DNA of 15,947 nt from assembly GCA_048939245.1 (NCBI GenBank), contig JBHLPR010000050.1:1-15947 (forward strand), written 5' to 3'. Positions 861 to 13,948 of the stretch are shown here, piece by piece. Each line of letters opens with the position of its first letter. Position 1 is the stretch's first letter. Under the pieces are notes generated by a model. The model was not told where the DNA came from, did no database searches, and worked only from the letters and a program-made list of their open reading frames with translations. The position numbers and the translations under genes were made by a program. The stretch comes from Promethearchaeota archaeon (GTDB lineage: Archaea; Asgardarchaeota; Hermodarchaeia; Hermodarchaeales; Hermodarchaeaceae).

Positions 861-921
861 TTTTATACCCCTTTTTATAGGCTGGTTTTTTATACAATGC
901 ATAAAGCAAAGAAGTTAAATT
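861..921. promoter_or_regulatory. Divergent promoter region with TATA-like elements
   Basis: TTTTATA occurs at 861-867, 873-879 and 888-894; the minus strand reads AAAAAGGGG-TATAAAA (BRE+TATA-like) upstream of the mutase. GAAGTTAAAT at 911-920 lies about 30 nt before ATG 947. Confidence 0.5.
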
Positions 922-946: not shown

Positions 947-1657
947 ATGCGGGTCGTTAAGTCTGCGGATTCTCTCGGGAATTCTACATCAATGGATGAG
1001 GATCACCTGGCAGCAGTCATTCGTGAGTTTGGACGTTCCATGCGCGAAGTTACCGGCGGTCTTGACGATGCAATGAACCGTTGGGAATCAGCACATCGCA
1101 GTTCACTTCGCCCGATCCGAGTTATTCTCGGCTCATTATCTAAAATTAACTACCTGCGCAATATCGAAGATCTTGGAAAACTAACCTCATTCGATGGCAT
1201 TATCGACCGGGCTCTCACAAAGAACATGGGACTCCTTGATAAGGTGCTTCCGAAGGTATTATCCTTAGCCTCGGATTTTGAGAGTTCTGTCCGAAAAATG
1301 CGTCTGATGAAAAAACGCGTCTCTGAATTGCAACGACGCGGAGCCAATCTCTTAGGAGCAGAAGATAGCGATGAACCGCGAGTTCGTCAGCTTGTTGAAA
1401 ACGTCGATGCTCTGAGCCAGAAACTTTGTCAAATCGTATGTATGTATGAAGACGAGTATCTCTTCCGCATGAAAACGATTCGAAACATCGAGGAGCTACT
1501 GGACCCCAAGGAACTTTATACAAGCCTTCTCCTTTGGACCATGGAGCCCTACTTAGAATCAGACCGCATTGAAACCATCCGCAAAGAAATTGGCACCCAC
1601 ATTGAAGAAACCCGTTCATTAGTTTCTCGACAAAACGTGCCTGCGAATATGTTCTAA
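947..1657 (+). CDS. All-helical/coiled-coil protein; putative CINP / C1orf109(AIRIM)-like eukaryotic signature protein
   Basis: 236-aa amphipathic helical ORF preceded by AGGGA. The C-terminal MYxxExL...DP......L..W...PY.ESD matches human CINP as I remember its sequence; the N-terminal half resembles the C1orf109 family. Confidence refers to the family call; the ORF itself is very likely real. Confidence 0.65.
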   Translation: MRVVKSADSLGNSTSMDEDHLAAVIREFGRSMREVTGGLDDAMNRWESAHRSSLRPIRVILGSLSKINYLRNIEDLGKLTSFDGIIDRALTKNMGLLDKVLPKVLSLASDFESSVRKMRLMKKRVSELQRRGANLLGAEDSDEPRVRQLVENVDALSQKLCQIVCMYEDEYLFRMKTIRNIEELLDPKELYTSLLLWTMEPYLESDRIETIRKEIGTHIEETRSLVSRQNVPANMF

Positions 1658-1734: not shown

Positions 1735-3114
1735 TTGACCCGACTTTTCGGCACACAAGGATTTCGTGGCATTGTGAACAAAGAACTCACATCAACGGTT
1801 GCACAAAACATCGGCTTAGCAGTGGCTCGCTATCTGGGACAGCAAAAAACCATTGGAATTGGATGGGATACACGCCAATCTAGCGAAATGATTGGGTTTG
1901 CCTTTACTGCTGGACTGATGGCAGGAGGTTGTGATGCACACATACTAGGTCTGGTTCCCACCCCACTGCTATCTTATGCCATTCCGCACCTCAACCTAGA
2001 TGGTGGAGCGATGATTACTGCGAGCCATAATCCCCCGGAATATAATGGAATCAAACTATGGGGAAAAGACGGCGCATCTTTTTCACCAGAAATGGAGAGG
2101 ACAGTAGAAAAACAATACTTTGCTGAAGCTCCCCCTGAAACACACTGGCAGAATTGTGGACGGCTAAGTCCGGCCGAAGATTTTCGGCTACAATACATTG
2201 AAGGTCTATTGGACCAAATCGACTCACAGCGCCTAATTACACACCAGTTTAATCTAGCGGCAGACTGTGGTGGCGGGGCTGCAACCATGGTTACGCCTGC
2301 ACTATTAAACGCAATAGGAGCTCAAACAAAAGAGCTATTTTGTGAGCCAGATGGCCTTTTTACAAACCGCCTGCCTGAACCAACTGAAAAGAACCTCACA
2401 CAATTGATTCACACCGTGAAAGAAGACCAACTCGATTTGGGAATGGCGTGGGATGGTGATGCGGACCGGATTATTTTCATCACAGAGAAAGGTCGATACT
2501 TAACAGGCGACCGTGTTTTTGCATTAGCTGCATATCATATGCTTCGGGATCTCCAAGAGAAACCGAAACGGATCGTCACACAGGTCGCAACAAGCGATGT
2601 AATTTTTGATGTGGCGTCAGCTGTTGACGCAGAGGTCATTGAAACCAGAGTAGGCGAGCCTTACATCGTCGCTAAGATGAAGGAATCAAATGCGGTAATT
2701 GGCGGTGAGGAAAACGGTGGCGTGGTATATCGTGGTTGGTCCTGGACTCGAGAAGGTTTCCTTACAGCCATTATGATTCTTGAGCTAATGGCTACAGAAG
2801 CCAAATCACTTGAAGAGCTAGATCGACAGTTCCCTTCTTATTTTCAGGTAAAGGATAGGATTCCATGCTCACCACAGCTGAAGGACAAACTGCTACAGCA
2901 AATTACGAAAATAACTCCTGCCGATGCAGACAGTAGCGATATTGATGGGGTGAAACTTCGATACTCAGATGGCTGGGTTTTACTCCGACCATCCGGCACG
3001 GAACCGGTCTTCCGTATCTTTGCCGAAGCAAAGACCAAAACGAGAGCAAAGACCTTATTAAAACAAGCGTATAAAATCGTGGATGAAGCACAAAGGGAAC
3101 TACAGAGTGATTGA
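1735..3114 (+). CDS. glmM: Phosphoglucosamine mutase / phosphomannomutase (alpha-D-phosphohexomutase)
   Basis: LFGTQGFRG, TASHNP (catalytic Ser), DGDADR metal loop, GEENGG sugar loop, LLRPSGTEP phosphate loop. TTG start with GAGGAG at 1723-1728. Substrate (GlcN-P versus Man-P/Glc-P) cannot be resolved from sequence. Confidence 0.9.
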   Translation: MTRLFGTQGFRGIVNKELTSTVAQNIGLAVARYLGQQKTIGIGWDTRQSSEMIGFAFTAGLMAGGCDAHILGLVPTPLLSYAIPHLNLDGGAMITASHNPPEYNGIKLWGKDGASFSPEMERTVEKQYFAEAPPETHWQNCGRLSPAEDFRLQYIEGLLDQIDSQRLITHQFNLAADCGGGAATMVTPALLNAIGAQTKELFCEPDGLFTNRLPEPTEKNLTQLIHTVKEDQLDLGMAWDGDADRIIFITEKGRYLTGDRVFALAAYHMLRDLQEKPKRIVTQVATSDVIFDVASAVDAEVIETRVGEPYIVAKMKESNAVIGGEENGGVVYRGWSWTREGFLTAIMILELMATEAKSLEELDRQFPSYFQVKDRIPCSPQLKDKLLQQITKITPADADSSDIDGVKLRYSDGWVLLRPSGTEPVFRIFAEAKTKTRAKTLLKQAYKIVDEAQRELQSD

Positions 3115-3116
3115 AA

Positions 3117-3539
3117 ATGCGATTGCTAATTTTTCATGGAAATCTTGCATACAAAGCTACCGAGGCCGTGAAGATTAGTATCCGAGATGATGCTGAAGAA
3201 GGCAAGTGGAAACACTTTGAAAACTGCTTAACAGTGTTTTGTGCTGTTGAAGCCTCTGACGAAGAACAGCTATCTGATATCGTGCAAAAAGCTGTCCAAG
3301 AAATTAAGGTTGTTGCTGACCGTGTAAAAGTCAAACTGGTGGTTTTGTACCCCCATGCCCACATTTTCCCACGAAAATTAGCCAAACCCAAGTTTGCCGT
3401 AAAAATCCTACAGGCATTAAGCCAAGCCCTTCAAAAAGAAAGCTTTACGGTCCATCAGACACCCTTTGGCTGGTATAAAGCATTCAAACTTGAATGCTAT
3501 GGACATCCTCTTTCAGAGTCCGGAAGAAGCATCGATTAG
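3117..3539 (+). CDS. Free-standing archaeal threonyl-tRNA synthetase editing domain (Ser-tRNA(Thr) hydrolase)
   Basis: MRLLIFH start, LYPHAHI and TPFGWYKAFKLECYGHPLSE are signatures of the archaeal ThrRS N-terminal editing domain. ATG 3117 is preferred over TTG 3111. Confidence 0.92.
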   Translation: MRLLIFHGNLAYKATEAVKISIRDDAEEGKWKHFENCLTVFCAVEASDEEQLSDIVQKAVQEIKVVADRVKVKLVVLYPHAHIFPRKLAKPKFAVKILQALSQALQKESFTVHQTPFGWYKAFKLECYGHPLSESGRSID

Positions 3540-5211: not shown

Positions 5212-5445
5212 CAGTAGTATTTTGATACGGAGAAGCGAAATAAACTAAGGGAGACTACCTGCGAAGTAATTCACTTCATAATACTAGATGATATGAAATA
5301 CTGCTTCTGGTCGTAGTATTGATTGACGTGTGCGTGATAGCACAAAGTTTTTGAAGTAAGGACACAAGCTCAACTCAAGCAGTTGTGGGCTCAGCTGAGT
5401 GAACAGCTGACAGCAGCTGCTGTGAATCTTCGAGATGATTGTGTA

Positions 5446-5721
5446 TTGCCATCAAAACGGAAAAGTGGTGGTCGCACTAAAGGCGCGACCGGTCGTGGAG
5501 CCACAGTGCAATGTACTAAATGCGGTAAAGTAGTACCTCGTGATAAAGCTAAAAAACGAACCACACGTGCTTCTTTTGTCGACCCGCAGATGGCGCGGGA
5601 ACTTCGCCGTTCAGGCACTTTTATTCCAAGTCGTCGTGTGACAAAGTGGTATTGTGTCAGTTGTGCAGTTCATAGCGGGGTTGTAGCTATTCGCAGCCGA
5701 AAAGATCGTAAAAAGCGGTAA
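5446..5721 (+). CDS. rps26e: Small-subunit ribosomal protein eS26 (S26e)
   Basis: (M)PSKRKSGGR.KG, VQCTKCGKVVPRDKA and YCVSCAVH zinc ligands. The true start is probably TTG 5446 rather than 5383, because homologues begin MPxKR. Confidence 0.96.
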   Translation: MPSKRKSGGRTKGATGRGATVQCTKCGKVVPRDKAKKRTTRASFVDPQMARELRRSGTFIPSRRVTKWYCVSCAVHSGVVAIRSRKDRKKR

Positions 5722-7415: not shown

Positions 7416-7574
7416 CGCAATCACGTTCGTTTGAGAATTATCACCCTGTAGACTTGTTCCTATTAATTTTCTTTGTATGGTTGGATAACTCGAAACACTC
7501 AAAAGCCTGTTTTCCGAAGAAAGCTTATTGGAAGCAGTGGACTTCCACTTTTTCTGGGAGCCCGTGACACCGTC

Positions 7575-8183
7575 ATGCAAGAGGAACTTCATGAAGTTGA
7601 ATATCAACCCATCCCAGTGCGTGACTTACTAGTGGAAATGAAAGACCTCAGTGAGTTGATGATCGATTTAGCCTATTCAGCAGTCATGTTTAATGACAAG
7701 GATCTGGCTGACGAAGTCATGGATATGGAAGAACGCGTTGACTATCTTGGCTACTTATTACTCATGAACGCGTCGCTAGCCGTCCGTGACAAAAAAGATG
7801 CAGAGCAGATTGTCAGTATCATGAAAACAGCTTCTGCAGCTAACAAAATCAGTGACGCCGCCGCAGATATTGCAGGACTTGTAATTCATGACATTGGGAT
7901 TCCCGTCATCCTTTGGTTGGCCGTAAGCCAGGCAGATGAAATAGTAGGTCGAGCCACAATCCTGAAGCAGTCAATGCTAGTTGGAAAGTCGTTAGCGGAT
8001 ATCAACCTTGAAGAAGAAATCGGAGCAGACATCATAGCAATCCAACGACGAAGAAAATGGGAAATCAATCCCCCCGAAGCCTTTGAATTAGAAAAAGGTG
8101 ATCGAGTTATAGCGCGAGGATCAGCTGAAAGCATAAAAAAACTACAGAGGCTAGCCGCCGGTGAGCTTGAAACGATTACTTAA
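7575..8183 (+). CDS. PhoU-like helical domain + TrkA-C (RCK_C) domain protein, paralogue 1
   Basis: LLVEMKDLSELMIDLAYSA...ISDAAADIA, then LVGKSLADINL...IIAIQR...INP...LEKGDRVIARG. ATG 7575 preferred over 7473. Confidence 0.88.
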   Translation: MQEELHEVEYQPIPVRDLLVEMKDLSELMIDLAYSAVMFNDKDLADEVMDMEERVDYLGYLLLMNASLAVRDKKDAEQIVSIMKTASAANKISDAAADIAGLVIHDIGIPVILWLAVSQADEIVGRATILKQSMLVGKSLADINLEEEIGADIIAIQRRRKWEINPPEAFELEKGDRVIARGSAESIKKLQRLAAGELETIT

Positions 8184-8778
8184 AACACCCACAGGTGAAG
8201 AGAGCCCAGAGGAACGCATTCTAGCGATGCTCATTCAAATGAAAGACACCTCTGAGCTTCTCATTAATTTAGCCTATACTGCACTCCTCACTAATAACAA
8301 GGATATTGCCGAGGATATTTTCGAATTGGAAGAGAAATTCGATAATTTTCACACAGAATTTGAGCTTGAAGTTCTACGTTTAGAATTAGAAGAGGGAGAA
8401 GAAAAACGCCGATTAGGACTTATCCGGCTCGGAGTTGCAGCAGAAAACCTTTCGGACGCGGCCGCACAAATGGCAGAAATCGTATTACGTGGCGTTGATG
8501 TTCATCCGCTTATGCAGTTAGCACTAAAGGATGCTGATGAACGGGTCAGCCGCCAGATTGTCAAACCCAACTCGATTCTCGCCAACAAAACTTTACGTCA
8601 ACTGCGTTTAGAGGATCATGGAACTAGAATCTTTGCTGTAAAGCGTAAAGACCAATGGACGTATGATCCGAGAGGACGATTCAAATTAAAACCTGGCGAC
8701 ATCATTTATGCTGGTGGTTATAAGGAAGCAGTCGAAAAGTTAGAAGGCATTGCTCAAGGCACAATCCAAGAGCTATAG
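8161..8778 (+). CDS. PhoU-like helical domain + TrkA-C domain protein, paralogue 2
   Basis: LIQMKDTSELLINLAYTA...LSDAAAQMA...LANKTLRQLRL...IFAVKR...LKPGDIIYAGG. Clearly homologous to the preceding gene, with a 23-nt overlap. Confidence 0.88.
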   Translation: MSLKRLLKTPTGEESPEERILAMLIQMKDTSELLINLAYTALLTNNKDIAEDIFELEEKFDNFHTEFELEVLRLELEEGEEKRRLGLIRLGVAAENLSDAAAQMAEIVLRGVDVHPLMQLALKDADERVSRQIVKPNSILANKTLRQLRLEDHGTRIFAVKRKDQWTYDPRGRFKLKPGDIIYAGGYKEAVEKLEGIAQGTIQEL

Positions 8779-9869: not shown

Positions 9870-11057
9870 TTGCGTAGGTTAACTAGCCCTTTGATTCTGG
9901 GGCTGATTATTCTTGTTATGGCTAGCCCTTTGACTGCTATGGCCGCACCAACTCGACAAGATGTCATAATCACGTTCACTGTGACATTAATTGATGGTTC
10001 TGGTGGTGCCGTCCTGCACCCAGGCGCATCTGTACCAAAGATGTCAAACACCTTCGACATCACAAATGTGCTAAATACCTTGGATGCCTGGATTGCAGCA
10101 GACCTTCTGATGCCCGACCGTTTTCTTATCGAGAATATAACGGCATGGATAAACGGGCTCTTTCTTAATGAAACCGCATCAGATCTAGGTTATGGCGGAT
10201 TCCTTCCCTATTCTGGCGCTCCCAACGCAACACTTACTGCAAGTGGTTTTGCCGTACAAGCGCTTACCCTTCTTAATCAAACAGATACTATTGATTCTTC
10301 CATTCTGATTGACTTCGTCGTAAACCTGCAACGCACCAATGCAACCCTCTTTCCTGAAACTGTTGGAGCATTTACAGATACGATTAATCGTTCCGCCACC
10401 GTTTCTGCAACATACTTTGCCATTCAGATATTGGACGAGTATGATGCAATTTCTCAAATGAACACATCACTTGCCATCAACTGGCTAAATTCCAGTCAAA
10501 TCCTCGCAGATCCTGCAGCCGTTAGCTATGGAGGTTTTGCAAATGGTCGAAATACAACAACAGCGGATTTACAGACAACCTATATGGCCCTTCGTGGTCT
10601 CGAAATCCTAAATGCACTCTCTATCATCGATCAGACAGCAGCAATTGATTATATTCTTCCGCATTATCGTGAAGATACAAACTATCCCCAATTCTATGGA
10701 GGATTTGCCAATACTCCAGATAGCTCCGTTGCCACTCACTTTGCGACGTTTTATGCCGTCGCCAGTCTGCAAATTCTAGGTGCAAGCAACCAGTTGTCAT
10801 CAGACGACATCACAAATTGGGTACTTAGTACGCAAGCCTTAGATGGCGGTTTTGCCGATGGTTCTAGCGCAACCGGGTTTGCTCCTCAGACAAATCTAGC
10901 GATATCTACCCTCGCCTTACTCGACCAACTTAGCAGCCTTCTTTTGCCTGTTGGACCTGATCTTTACGTCTTTCCATGGTGGATTGTAGCTGTTGCAGTA
11001 GTAGTGATTCTCATAGTGCTCTGTATCATTATTGCTCGCCGTTCTGAATGGTTCTAA
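9870..11057 (+). CDS. Exported, C-terminally membrane-anchored protein with prenyltransferase/squalene-cyclase-like alpha/alpha-barrel repeats
   Basis: Signal peptide (MRRLTSPLILGLIILVMASPLTAMA); five G[GA]F...T..A...L..L repeats; C-terminal TM helix WWIVAVAVVVILIVLCIII followed by RR; many N-x-S/T sequons; GGAGG at 9857-9861. Confidence 0.8.
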   Translation: MRRLTSPLILGLIILVMASPLTAMAAPTRQDVIITFTVTLIDGSGGAVLHPGASVPKMSNTFDITNVLNTLDAWIAADLLMPDRFLIENITAWINGLFLNETASDLGYGGFLPYSGAPNATLTASGFAVQALTLLNQTDTIDSSILIDFVVNLQRTNATLFPETVGAFTDTINRSATVSATYFAIQILDEYDAISQMNTSLAINWLNSSQILADPAAVSYGGFANGRNTTTADLQTTYMALRGLEILNALSIIDQTAAIDYILPHYREDTNYPQFYGGFANTPDSSVATHFATFYAVASLQILGASNQLSSDDITNWVLSTQALDGGFADGSSATGFAPQTNLAISTLALLDQLSSLLLPVGPDLYVFPWWIVAVAVVVILIVLCIIIARRSEWF

Positions 11058-13549: not shown

Positions 13550-13948
13550 ATGATGCAGCAATTTGCTATGAGTGAAGAAGAAGCCAAACAGTTAGCAATG
13601 TACTTACGTGAAATCACATTATATACCGAACTTGAAACGCTGGCAGTGGTCACCAAAGCTGGACGCCGAGTAGCATTCAGTTCAACGAAAGGTGTCGATA
13701 TTGACCCAGATCTACTCTCAGCAATTTCGGCGGTCTTATTACAAACGGGCATTGAAGCTGTCCAAAAATTAGCTTTTGAACCTTTATTCGAACTCATTGT
13801 CCGCGGGGAAAAAGGAATTATCGTCGTCACTGACGCAGGACCCTTAGTGCTTATTGGTGCTGGCGTTAAAATCGAGTCATTGGGACACGTGGTCTCCGTC
13901 TTCCGACACTTTGGGCGAGAAATTGCAGGGTTATTCGCTAAAAAGTGA
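13550..13948 (+). CDS. Roadblock/LC7 (MglB/LAMTOR-like) domain protein
   Basis: helix-LAVVTKAG-DPDLLSAISA helix-LIVRGEKGIIVV-LVLI-LG helix is the typical roadblock pattern; AGGGGA lies upstream. Confidence 0.88.
   Translation: MMQQFAMSEEEAKQLAMYLREITLYTELETLAVVTKAGRRVAFSSTKGVDIDPDLLSAISAVLLQTGIEAVQKLAFEPLFELIVRGEKGIIVVTDAGPLVLIGAGVKIESLGHVVSVFRHFGREIAGLFAKK

Follow-up and report, generated by a model that had tools for sequence, protein, structure and literature searches.

CINP and C1orf109 (AIRIM) are disease-linked helical cofactors of the SPATA5-SPATA5L1 ATPase, which functions in late 60S maturation. The present analysis concerns an archaeal gene, the predicted product of which resembles both of these proteins, located in a stretch of 15,947 nucleotides (the window) from a Promethearchaeota archaeon (GenBank assembly GCA_048939245.1, contig JBHLPR010000050.1). 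The two human cofactors consist of five helices each and form a T-shaped heterodimer on SPATA5-SPATA5L1, in which CINP receives the α1–α2 loop of C1orf109 by hydrophobic insertion; CINP recognises the pre-60S via GTPBP4, a eukaryotic factor (PMC12019325). Two interacting cofactors are also found in plants, where OAP1 is paired with OPNR as CINP is with C1orf109 in animals (PMC12332008), and the relatives in both kingdoms act on the N-terminal domains (N-domains) of a Cdc48-type ATPase (PMC12019325, PMC12332008).

The closest archaeal proteins described so far are the Asgard CINP-like proteins (CINPL) of Köstlbacher et al. (bioRxiv 10.1101/2024.07.03.601958; Nat Microbiol 2026, PMC12962969, Fig. 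4h), which were reported from five major Asgard clades. According to the main text of that paper, CINPL is restricted to Asgard archaea among prokaryotes and matches CINP over its full length in both structure and sequence, with the eukaryotic proteins placed as sister to those of Hodarchaeales; CINP alone is discussed there, and the sole mention of C1orf109 is in the title of a cited work. The window protein belongs to the same family, and a caveat in an earlier note made from the sequence of this DNA, that an Asgard homologue of CINP might not be new, was thus well placed. What is added here is the Pfam signal of C1orf109, the structural tie between C1orf109 and CINP, the single copy of the gene across 301 genomes, and the position of the window subgroup on a diverged branch. 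No paper in which CINP and C1orf109 are called paralogues was found in the literature searched. In a 2025 preprint (bioRxiv 10.1101/2025.11.07.687187) both proteins are described as eumetazoan-specific on the grounds of reciprocal BLAST, a claim that conflicts with the work on plant OPNR and OAP1 as well as with the Asgard family.

Likeness of the window protein to CINP and C1orf109

The AlphaFold2 model of the window protein consists of five helices, with a predicted local distance difference test score (pLDDT) of 84.6. The protein had been introduced in the earlier note as a helical orphan of 236 residues; its length and helical nature agree with the model, whereas the orphan status has to be abandoned, as homologues with 60–95% identity are present in many metagenome-assembled genomes (MAGs) of Promethearchaeota and Hodarchaeota. 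In common with human CINP (8cih, 9gwj_B, 8rhn_C, 9lgo_J), the Asgard protein is a five-helix bundle of ~200 residues with a tryptophan in helix 1, the motif MY..E in helix 3, and W..(E/Q)PY.ESD at the α4–α5 turn. It differs from CINP in overall sequence, with an identity of 12–15%, and in the α1–α2 loop, the L..F motif of which has no equivalent in CINP in the profile alignment described below. With C1orf109/AIRIM, the Pfam family PF15011, and plant OPNR, in turn, it shares the five-helix fold and a hydrophobic α1–α2 loop in the same position, whereas the PF15011 model (161 positions) ends before the W..EPY motif that the Asgard proteins have in common with CINP. Residues Met166, Glu168, Trp197, Glu200, Pro201, and Tyr202 are each kept in at least 90% of the 42 family members that were aligned.

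The gapless alignment to the C terminus of human CINP that was given in the earlier note, with 13 identities in 41 positions including MY..E, DP, W, and PY.ESD, proved exact when recounted, and the human sequence given there is identical to that of PDB chains 9gwj_B, 8cih_A, 8rhn_C, and 9lgo_J. Taken alone, this 41-residue match is no better than chance, and a profile of close homologues (A1) reaches CINP in the PDB at an E-value of 0.56. A different result was obtained with profile A2, built from 19 diverse Asgard members with ~20% identity to the window protein, which matches human CINP at E 1.8e-11 (47 bits), with profile positions 5–182 aligned to residues 3–179 of the chain, and includes Trp46 of helix 1, MYE.E of helix 3, and W..EPY.E at the α4–α5 turn. 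Because a profile of the diverse family matches CINP significantly and over nearly its full length, the relationship to CINP is real. The C-terminal 45 residues account for about 25 of the 47 bits, and CINP is retained at E 6.5e-4 by the profiles restricted to the N-terminal two thirds (A3) or to helix 1, the loop, and helix 2 (A4).

The relationship to C1orf109 is seen first of all in the Pfam model PF15011 (CA109-like), which matches residues 33–182 of the window protein (E 1.9e-5, 25.0 bits) and 38 of the 42 family members at E-values of 1e-3 or lower, the best of them 1.6e-14. When 16 members were scanned singly, 11 exceeded the gathering cut-off of 27 bits, with scores of 35–54.5 bits, although several of the PF15011 matches span the N-terminal half of the model only; no other Pfam family was matched by more than one of the 42 members. 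The nearest clusters of the ESM Atlas by language-model features are eukaryotic homologues of C1orf109, from arthropods, chordates, and plants (score 0.94), and with the PF15011 clusters set aside the same search yielded nothing at 0.9 or above and no cluster named CINP. Since PF15011 covers the first three helices of the Asgard protein and about half of the CINP signal is C-terminal, as given above, the sequences suggest roughly the division that the earlier note had described, with a CINP-like C-terminal part and an N-terminal part closer to C1orf109.

Comparison of the predicted structures with those in the PDB places the same two proteins at the top. In a Foldseek search of 350,542 PDB chains with the model of the window protein, the six highest-ranking chains are cofactors of the human complex (55LCC), and the best TM-scores, 0.64/0.73, belong to C1orf109 (9gwj_A). 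In VIA-align, a comparison with 48,161 representative PDB chains that is independent of Foldseek, C1orf109 (9gwj_C) ranks first, with Z 15.4, a root-mean-square deviation (rmsd) of 3.7, and 192 of 202 residues aligned, and CINP (9lgo_J) second, with Z 15.1, rmsd 3.0, and 168 residues aligned, the next chain being at 13.1. The best CINP chain by this method, 9gwj_B, gave Z 17.2 and rmsd 3.5 with 190 of 196 residues aligned, followed by 8cih_A at 16.9, with the next unrelated chain at 13.4. For a divergent member of the family, P0042 (pLDDT 88.2), the ten best Foldseek matches consist entirely of chains of C1orf109 and CINP, in interleaved order, and VIA-align again places C1orf109 first (Z 16.2) and CINP second (Z 15.7), with a designed bundle close behind (15.3). 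The sequence identity to the human proteins in the structure alignments is 12–18%. On the strength of these models, the structural likeness to C1orf109 and to CINP is tied, and the comparison of an AlphaFold model with the 55LCC subunits, which the earlier note had proposed as a check, was favourable for two different members. The central statement of that note, that the protein resembles both CINP and C1orf109, is thus borne out by the CINP profile, the PF15011 matches, the structural ranks, and the language-model clusters.

Several observations weigh against this dual likeness. A phmmer search of the PDB with the window protein alone finds CINP at E 0.88, over residues 162–207, so that the proposed profile check against CINP was significant with the diverse family and weak with the single protein, and the PF15011 score of the window protein lies 2 bits below the gathering cut-off. 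Human C1orf109/AIRIM is matched by profile A2 marginally (E 1.7e-3, 21 bits) and is outranked in the PDB by unrelated helical proteins, two phage proteins among them, at E 4e-4 to 7e-4; with profiles A1, A3, and A4 it is not matched at all in the PDB, so that it is lost when the N-terminal part is used by itself. Designed helical bundles have Z-scores just 0.4 to 4 units below those of the cofactor chains. When compared directly with the human sequences, the family leans to CINP, and the window subgroup seems to be a diverged tip of the family, weak by itself against both eukaryotic proteins, and not the form nearest to eukaryotes.

Two other explanations have to be considered at this point. 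In the first, the likeness would be that of any long helical bundle, due to composition and coiled-coil bias and with no homology behind it. The designed bundles that reach Z 13–15, the single-sequence matches that fall short of significance, and a shape search of the ESM Atlas that returned generic bundles only are what would be expected in such a case. A bundle of this kind, however, would not account for the full-length CINP profile match with its shared Trp46, MYE.E, and W..(E/Q)PY.E, for the occurrence of PF15011 in nearly all members when other Pfam families are found in single ones, or for the cofactor chains at the top of the Foldseek ranking for two models, and we regard this explanation as very improbable.

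In the second, the gene would be an orthologue of CINP only, with C1orf109 being either an older paralogue lost in archaea or a eukaryotic invention that evolved fast and has only the fold in common. The scores of the Asgard profile (47 bits on CINP vs 21 bits on C1orf109), the N-terminal profiles that keep CINP and lose C1orf109, and the highest single Z-score, which is that of CINP, agree with this explanation, as does the published tree, in which the family is treated as CINP with the eukaryotic proteins sister to Hodarchaeales (PMC12962969, main text). Nevertheless, we consider it unlikely: the C1orf109 Pfam model reaches up to 54.5 bits on Asgard members, C1orf109 comes first in the unbiased structure search with two different members and again among the language-model clusters, and a second member of the family was found in none of the 120 genomes that carry the gene. 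Moreover, uneven rates after a duplication can make an ancestor-like protein look nearer to the slower copy. Membership of the window gene in a family that contains both eukaryotic CINP and C1orf109 is the best secured part of the analysis, and we hold it with high confidence.

Distribution, copy number, and history of the family

When 1.84 billion representative proteins were searched exhaustively with a profile, 18 matches were obtained, and all of the named ones are from Asgard MAGs, non-Asgard genomes not having been searched individually. The weakest of the 18, P0050 (391 residues with LED/LRR repeats), was set aside as a likely false positive. Word-indexed protein searches, including one seeded with a 44-residue CINP motif, likewise returned Asgard proteins only.

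The genome from which the window is derived (2.5 Mb, 88% complete) has one member of the family. Among the 301 Asgard genomes sampled, the gene is present in 120, almost always once, and its occurrence, wide but patchy, follows taxonomic families (numbered here with the prefix f): it is found in 16 of 18 genomes of the window's own family (f1), in 71 of 76 of f6, in all five of f15, and in 20 of 21 of f21, and in none of the 68 genomes of f9, the 29 of f4, the 11 of f13, or the 11 of f27. A second, heterodimer-type paralogue of the cofactor was not found in the window's genome, and of the 120 genomes that carry the gene nearly all have a single member. An unannotated gene adjoining the homologue P0043 was considered as a hidden paralogue and rejected, with an hhalign probability of 0.1% and no Pfam match.

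The simplest history is a duplication of an Asgard-type gene, because there is one gene in Asgard archaea and there are two pairing proteins in eukaryotes; that CINP and C1orf109 arose in this way, with the window gene representing the state before the duplication, has a chance that we place just short of even. The relative order of the Asgard, CINP, and C1orf109 clades, for which there is no outgroup, can be resolved only if the branches of the eukaryotic proteins fall inside the Asgard diversity. Acquisition of the gene from a eukaryote, by contamination of the assembly or by recent transfer, would also place a CINP-like gene in this DNA. No point in its favour was found, and its probability is next to negligible: the contig is archaeal over 15.9 kb, with the gene between archaeal housekeeping genes, members occur once per genome across the positive Asgard genomes and diverge down to ~20% mutual identity, and identity to the human proteins is as low as stated above.

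Candidate partner ATPases and proposed function

The earlier note had gone further and proposed that the protein serves an archaeal Cdc48- or AFG2-like ATPase in a forerunner of 55LCC. Compared with 55LCC and with its plant counterpart OPENER (CIP111-CDC48D), the window's genome is similar in encoding one cofactor-like protein together with Cdc48-type ATPases of N-D1-D2 architecture, a similarity that concerns the genes alone. There are three such Cdc48/VAT ATPases, encoded on contigs C115 (5598–7826, plus strand), C71 (11863–14115, minus strand), and C16 (1–2082, minus strand), all with N-domains and with a mutual identity of 51–54%. The genome differs from 55LCC and OPENER in that neither a second cofactor, nor a placeholder of the Rlp24 type, nor, by a crude comparison of scores, a dedicated ATPase of the AFG2 type was found in it, and in that cofactor and ATPase were not seen to be linked, either genomically or phyletically.

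The individual results weigh against such a system. For each of the three paralogues, archaeal VAT and p97 give better scores than SPATA5 or Drg1 do, the copy on contig C115 being relatively the most SPATA5-like (655 bits vs 677 for p97), so that none of the three is AFG2-like by this comparison, which as a crude typing leaves room for a functional equivalent of AFG2. A quick maximum-likelihood tree was built for 39 Cdc48 genes, taken from 15 Asgard genomes (seven with the cofactor gene and eight without), and none of its clades tracks the presence of the gene; the major clades are mixed, and the labels change 13 times, vs 13.3 when shuffled. The neighbourhoods of three divergent homologues, which differ between lineages, have neither shared genes nor an AAA+ gene among them, and a single L24e match, with no Rlp24-like second one, was found in the genome at its 88% completeness. 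The proto-55LCC system thus found no support in the ATPases, in the distribution of their paralogues, in the neighbourhood, or in L24e, and the survey of co-occurrence across Asgard genomes that the earlier note had suggested yielded no Cdc48 paralogue that is co-distributed with the gene. A prediction of a complex of two copies of the window protein (residues 16–230, with an alignment of 42 rows) gave a score of 0.01 vs a mark of 0.42, a result that speaks neither for nor against binding.

These findings would be accounted for if the protein had a role in archaea unrelated to AAA+ ATPases, for example as a scaffold, with the recruitment of AFG2 being a eukaryotic innovation, a possibility that is also in line with the many Asgard lineages that have Cdc48 and do not have the gene, such as f9 and f4. 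We take this to be somewhat unlikely. The animal and the plant relatives both work on N-domains of the Cdc48 type (PMC12019325, PMC12332008), which suggests that the function is old, and the genome itself provides three Cdc48/VAT ATPases with such domains.

An adaptor function on an AAA+ ATPase is thus assigned to the Asgard protein tentatively and solely by homology, because both eukaryotic relatives work on Cdc48-type N-domains; it is plausible, at a level somewhat below an even chance. In the proposed mechanism, a double-ring AAA+ unfoldase of the Cdc48/VAT type would carry the single protein as an adaptor on its N-terminal domains and would be helped by it to grip a substrate, with the hydrophobic α1–α2 loop (Leu79 and Phe82) and the W..EPY loop serving as putative sites of contact with other proteins. 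Residues 76–84, which form the first of these loops, would be the positional counterpart of the α1–α2 loop of C1orf109, and one Asgard chain, having both this loop of the C1orf109 type and a W..EPY turn of the CINP type, could play both roles. We can speculate that the protein preceding the duplication, with the α1–α2 loop as donor and the W..EPY surface as acceptor, formed a head-to-tail ring on the N-domains of a homohexameric Cdc48/VAT, and that eukaryotes later split it into two cofactors and two ATPases, an arrangement that we consider improbable in this particular form. Taken as a whole, the explanation that we prefer, a vertically inherited single-copy member of the family that represents the pre-duplication state and acts as an adaptor, is judged slightly likelier to be right than wrong.

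Some features of the ATPase and ribosomal protein genes were noted in passing. The sole eL24 gene of the genome (contig C64, L056, positions 1330–1680 on the minus strand) encodes 116 residues with a lysine-rich C-terminal tail of ~50 residues and thereby exceeds the usual length of eL24 in archaea. In one of the other Asgard genomes (G025, contig C47, 3851–7525), a Cdc48-like gene has its halves, corresponding to query positions 22–279 and 275–736, separated by ~1.5 kb within a single frame of 1236 residues, a gap suggestive of an insertion of the intein type within D1. Two further Asgard Cdc48 genes contain in-frame stop codons, TAA in one (G005, contig C49, L063) and TAG together with TAA in the other (G003, contig C43, L072), and could be pseudogenes, assembly errors, or cases of recoding.

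The locus and its significance

The coordinates of the gene, of its motifs, and of the neighbouring genes are listed in Table 1.

Table 1. Features of the window, numbered from its first nucleotide
Feature	Position	Strand	Remarks
P0001, reading frame for the CINP/C1orf109-like five-helix protein	947–1657, stop codon included	+	Translates stop-free to 236 residues; from translation, homologues, and model
Alternative ATG start codon, Met16 (MDEDHL...)	992–994	+	Candidate true start; product of 221 residues
Three TATA-like boxes	861–894		TTTTATA 861–867, TTTTTATA 872–879, TTTTTTATA 886–894
Trp46 codon, helix 1	1082–1084	+	Invariant across the family; aligns with W of KWE in human CINP
Loop between helix 1 and helix 2, residues 76–84	1172–1198	+	LGKLTSFDG; Leu79 and Phe82 conserved in the family
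CINP-like C-terminal signature, residues 166–206	1442–1564	+	MYE.E in helix 3, Trp197 in helix 4, Glu200-Pro201-Tyr202 in the helix 4–5 loop
Phosphoglucomutase/phosphomannomutase-type gene	2–814	−	Divergent from the CINP-like gene
Phosphoglucomutase/phosphomannomutase-type gene	1735–3114	+	Downstream of the CINP-like gene
Free-standing archaeal threonyl-tRNA synthetase editing domain	3111–3539	+	142 residues, no synthetase fused; PF08915, E 3.9e-41
Reading frame of 541 residues	3586–5211	−	No Pfam match; lowest-GC part, 0.39 vs 0.44–0.47 elsewhere in the window
Ribosomal protein S26e	5383–5721	+	
Two tandem PhoU + TrkA_C genes	7473–8183, 8161–8778	+, +	23-base overlap
Prenyltransferase alpha-alpha toroid protein	9870–11057	+	PF00432
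Roadblock/LC7 protein	13550–13948	+	

The reading frame may truly begin at Met16, since residues 1–15 are variable, with pLDDT values under 50, and the annotation of many orthologues gives the shorter length; the ESM Atlas record of the window protein also begins at residue 16. The TATA-like boxes, which may act as a promoter, lie in a divergent intergenic region of 132 bp that is shared with the phosphoglucomutase-type gene on the opposite strand.

The context of the gene is archaeal, with S26e, the threonyl-tRNA synthetase editing domain, and aminoacyl-tRNA synthetases. S26e, the PF00432 protein, and the Roadblock/LC7 protein represent the eukaryote-like genes that Asgard genomes typically carry, and in another lineage the homologue P0056 also has a Roadblock gene nearby.

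With the archaeal homologue already published, the addition made here is a modest one and consists of the dual likeness, the single-copy count, and the negative results on the partner. If one archaeal gene yielded both CINP and C1orf109, then the cofactor layer of the 55LCC machine predates eukaryotes. A version with one cofactor and one ATPase could in that case be rebuilt in vitro, which would help to reveal how such adaptors select their substrates.

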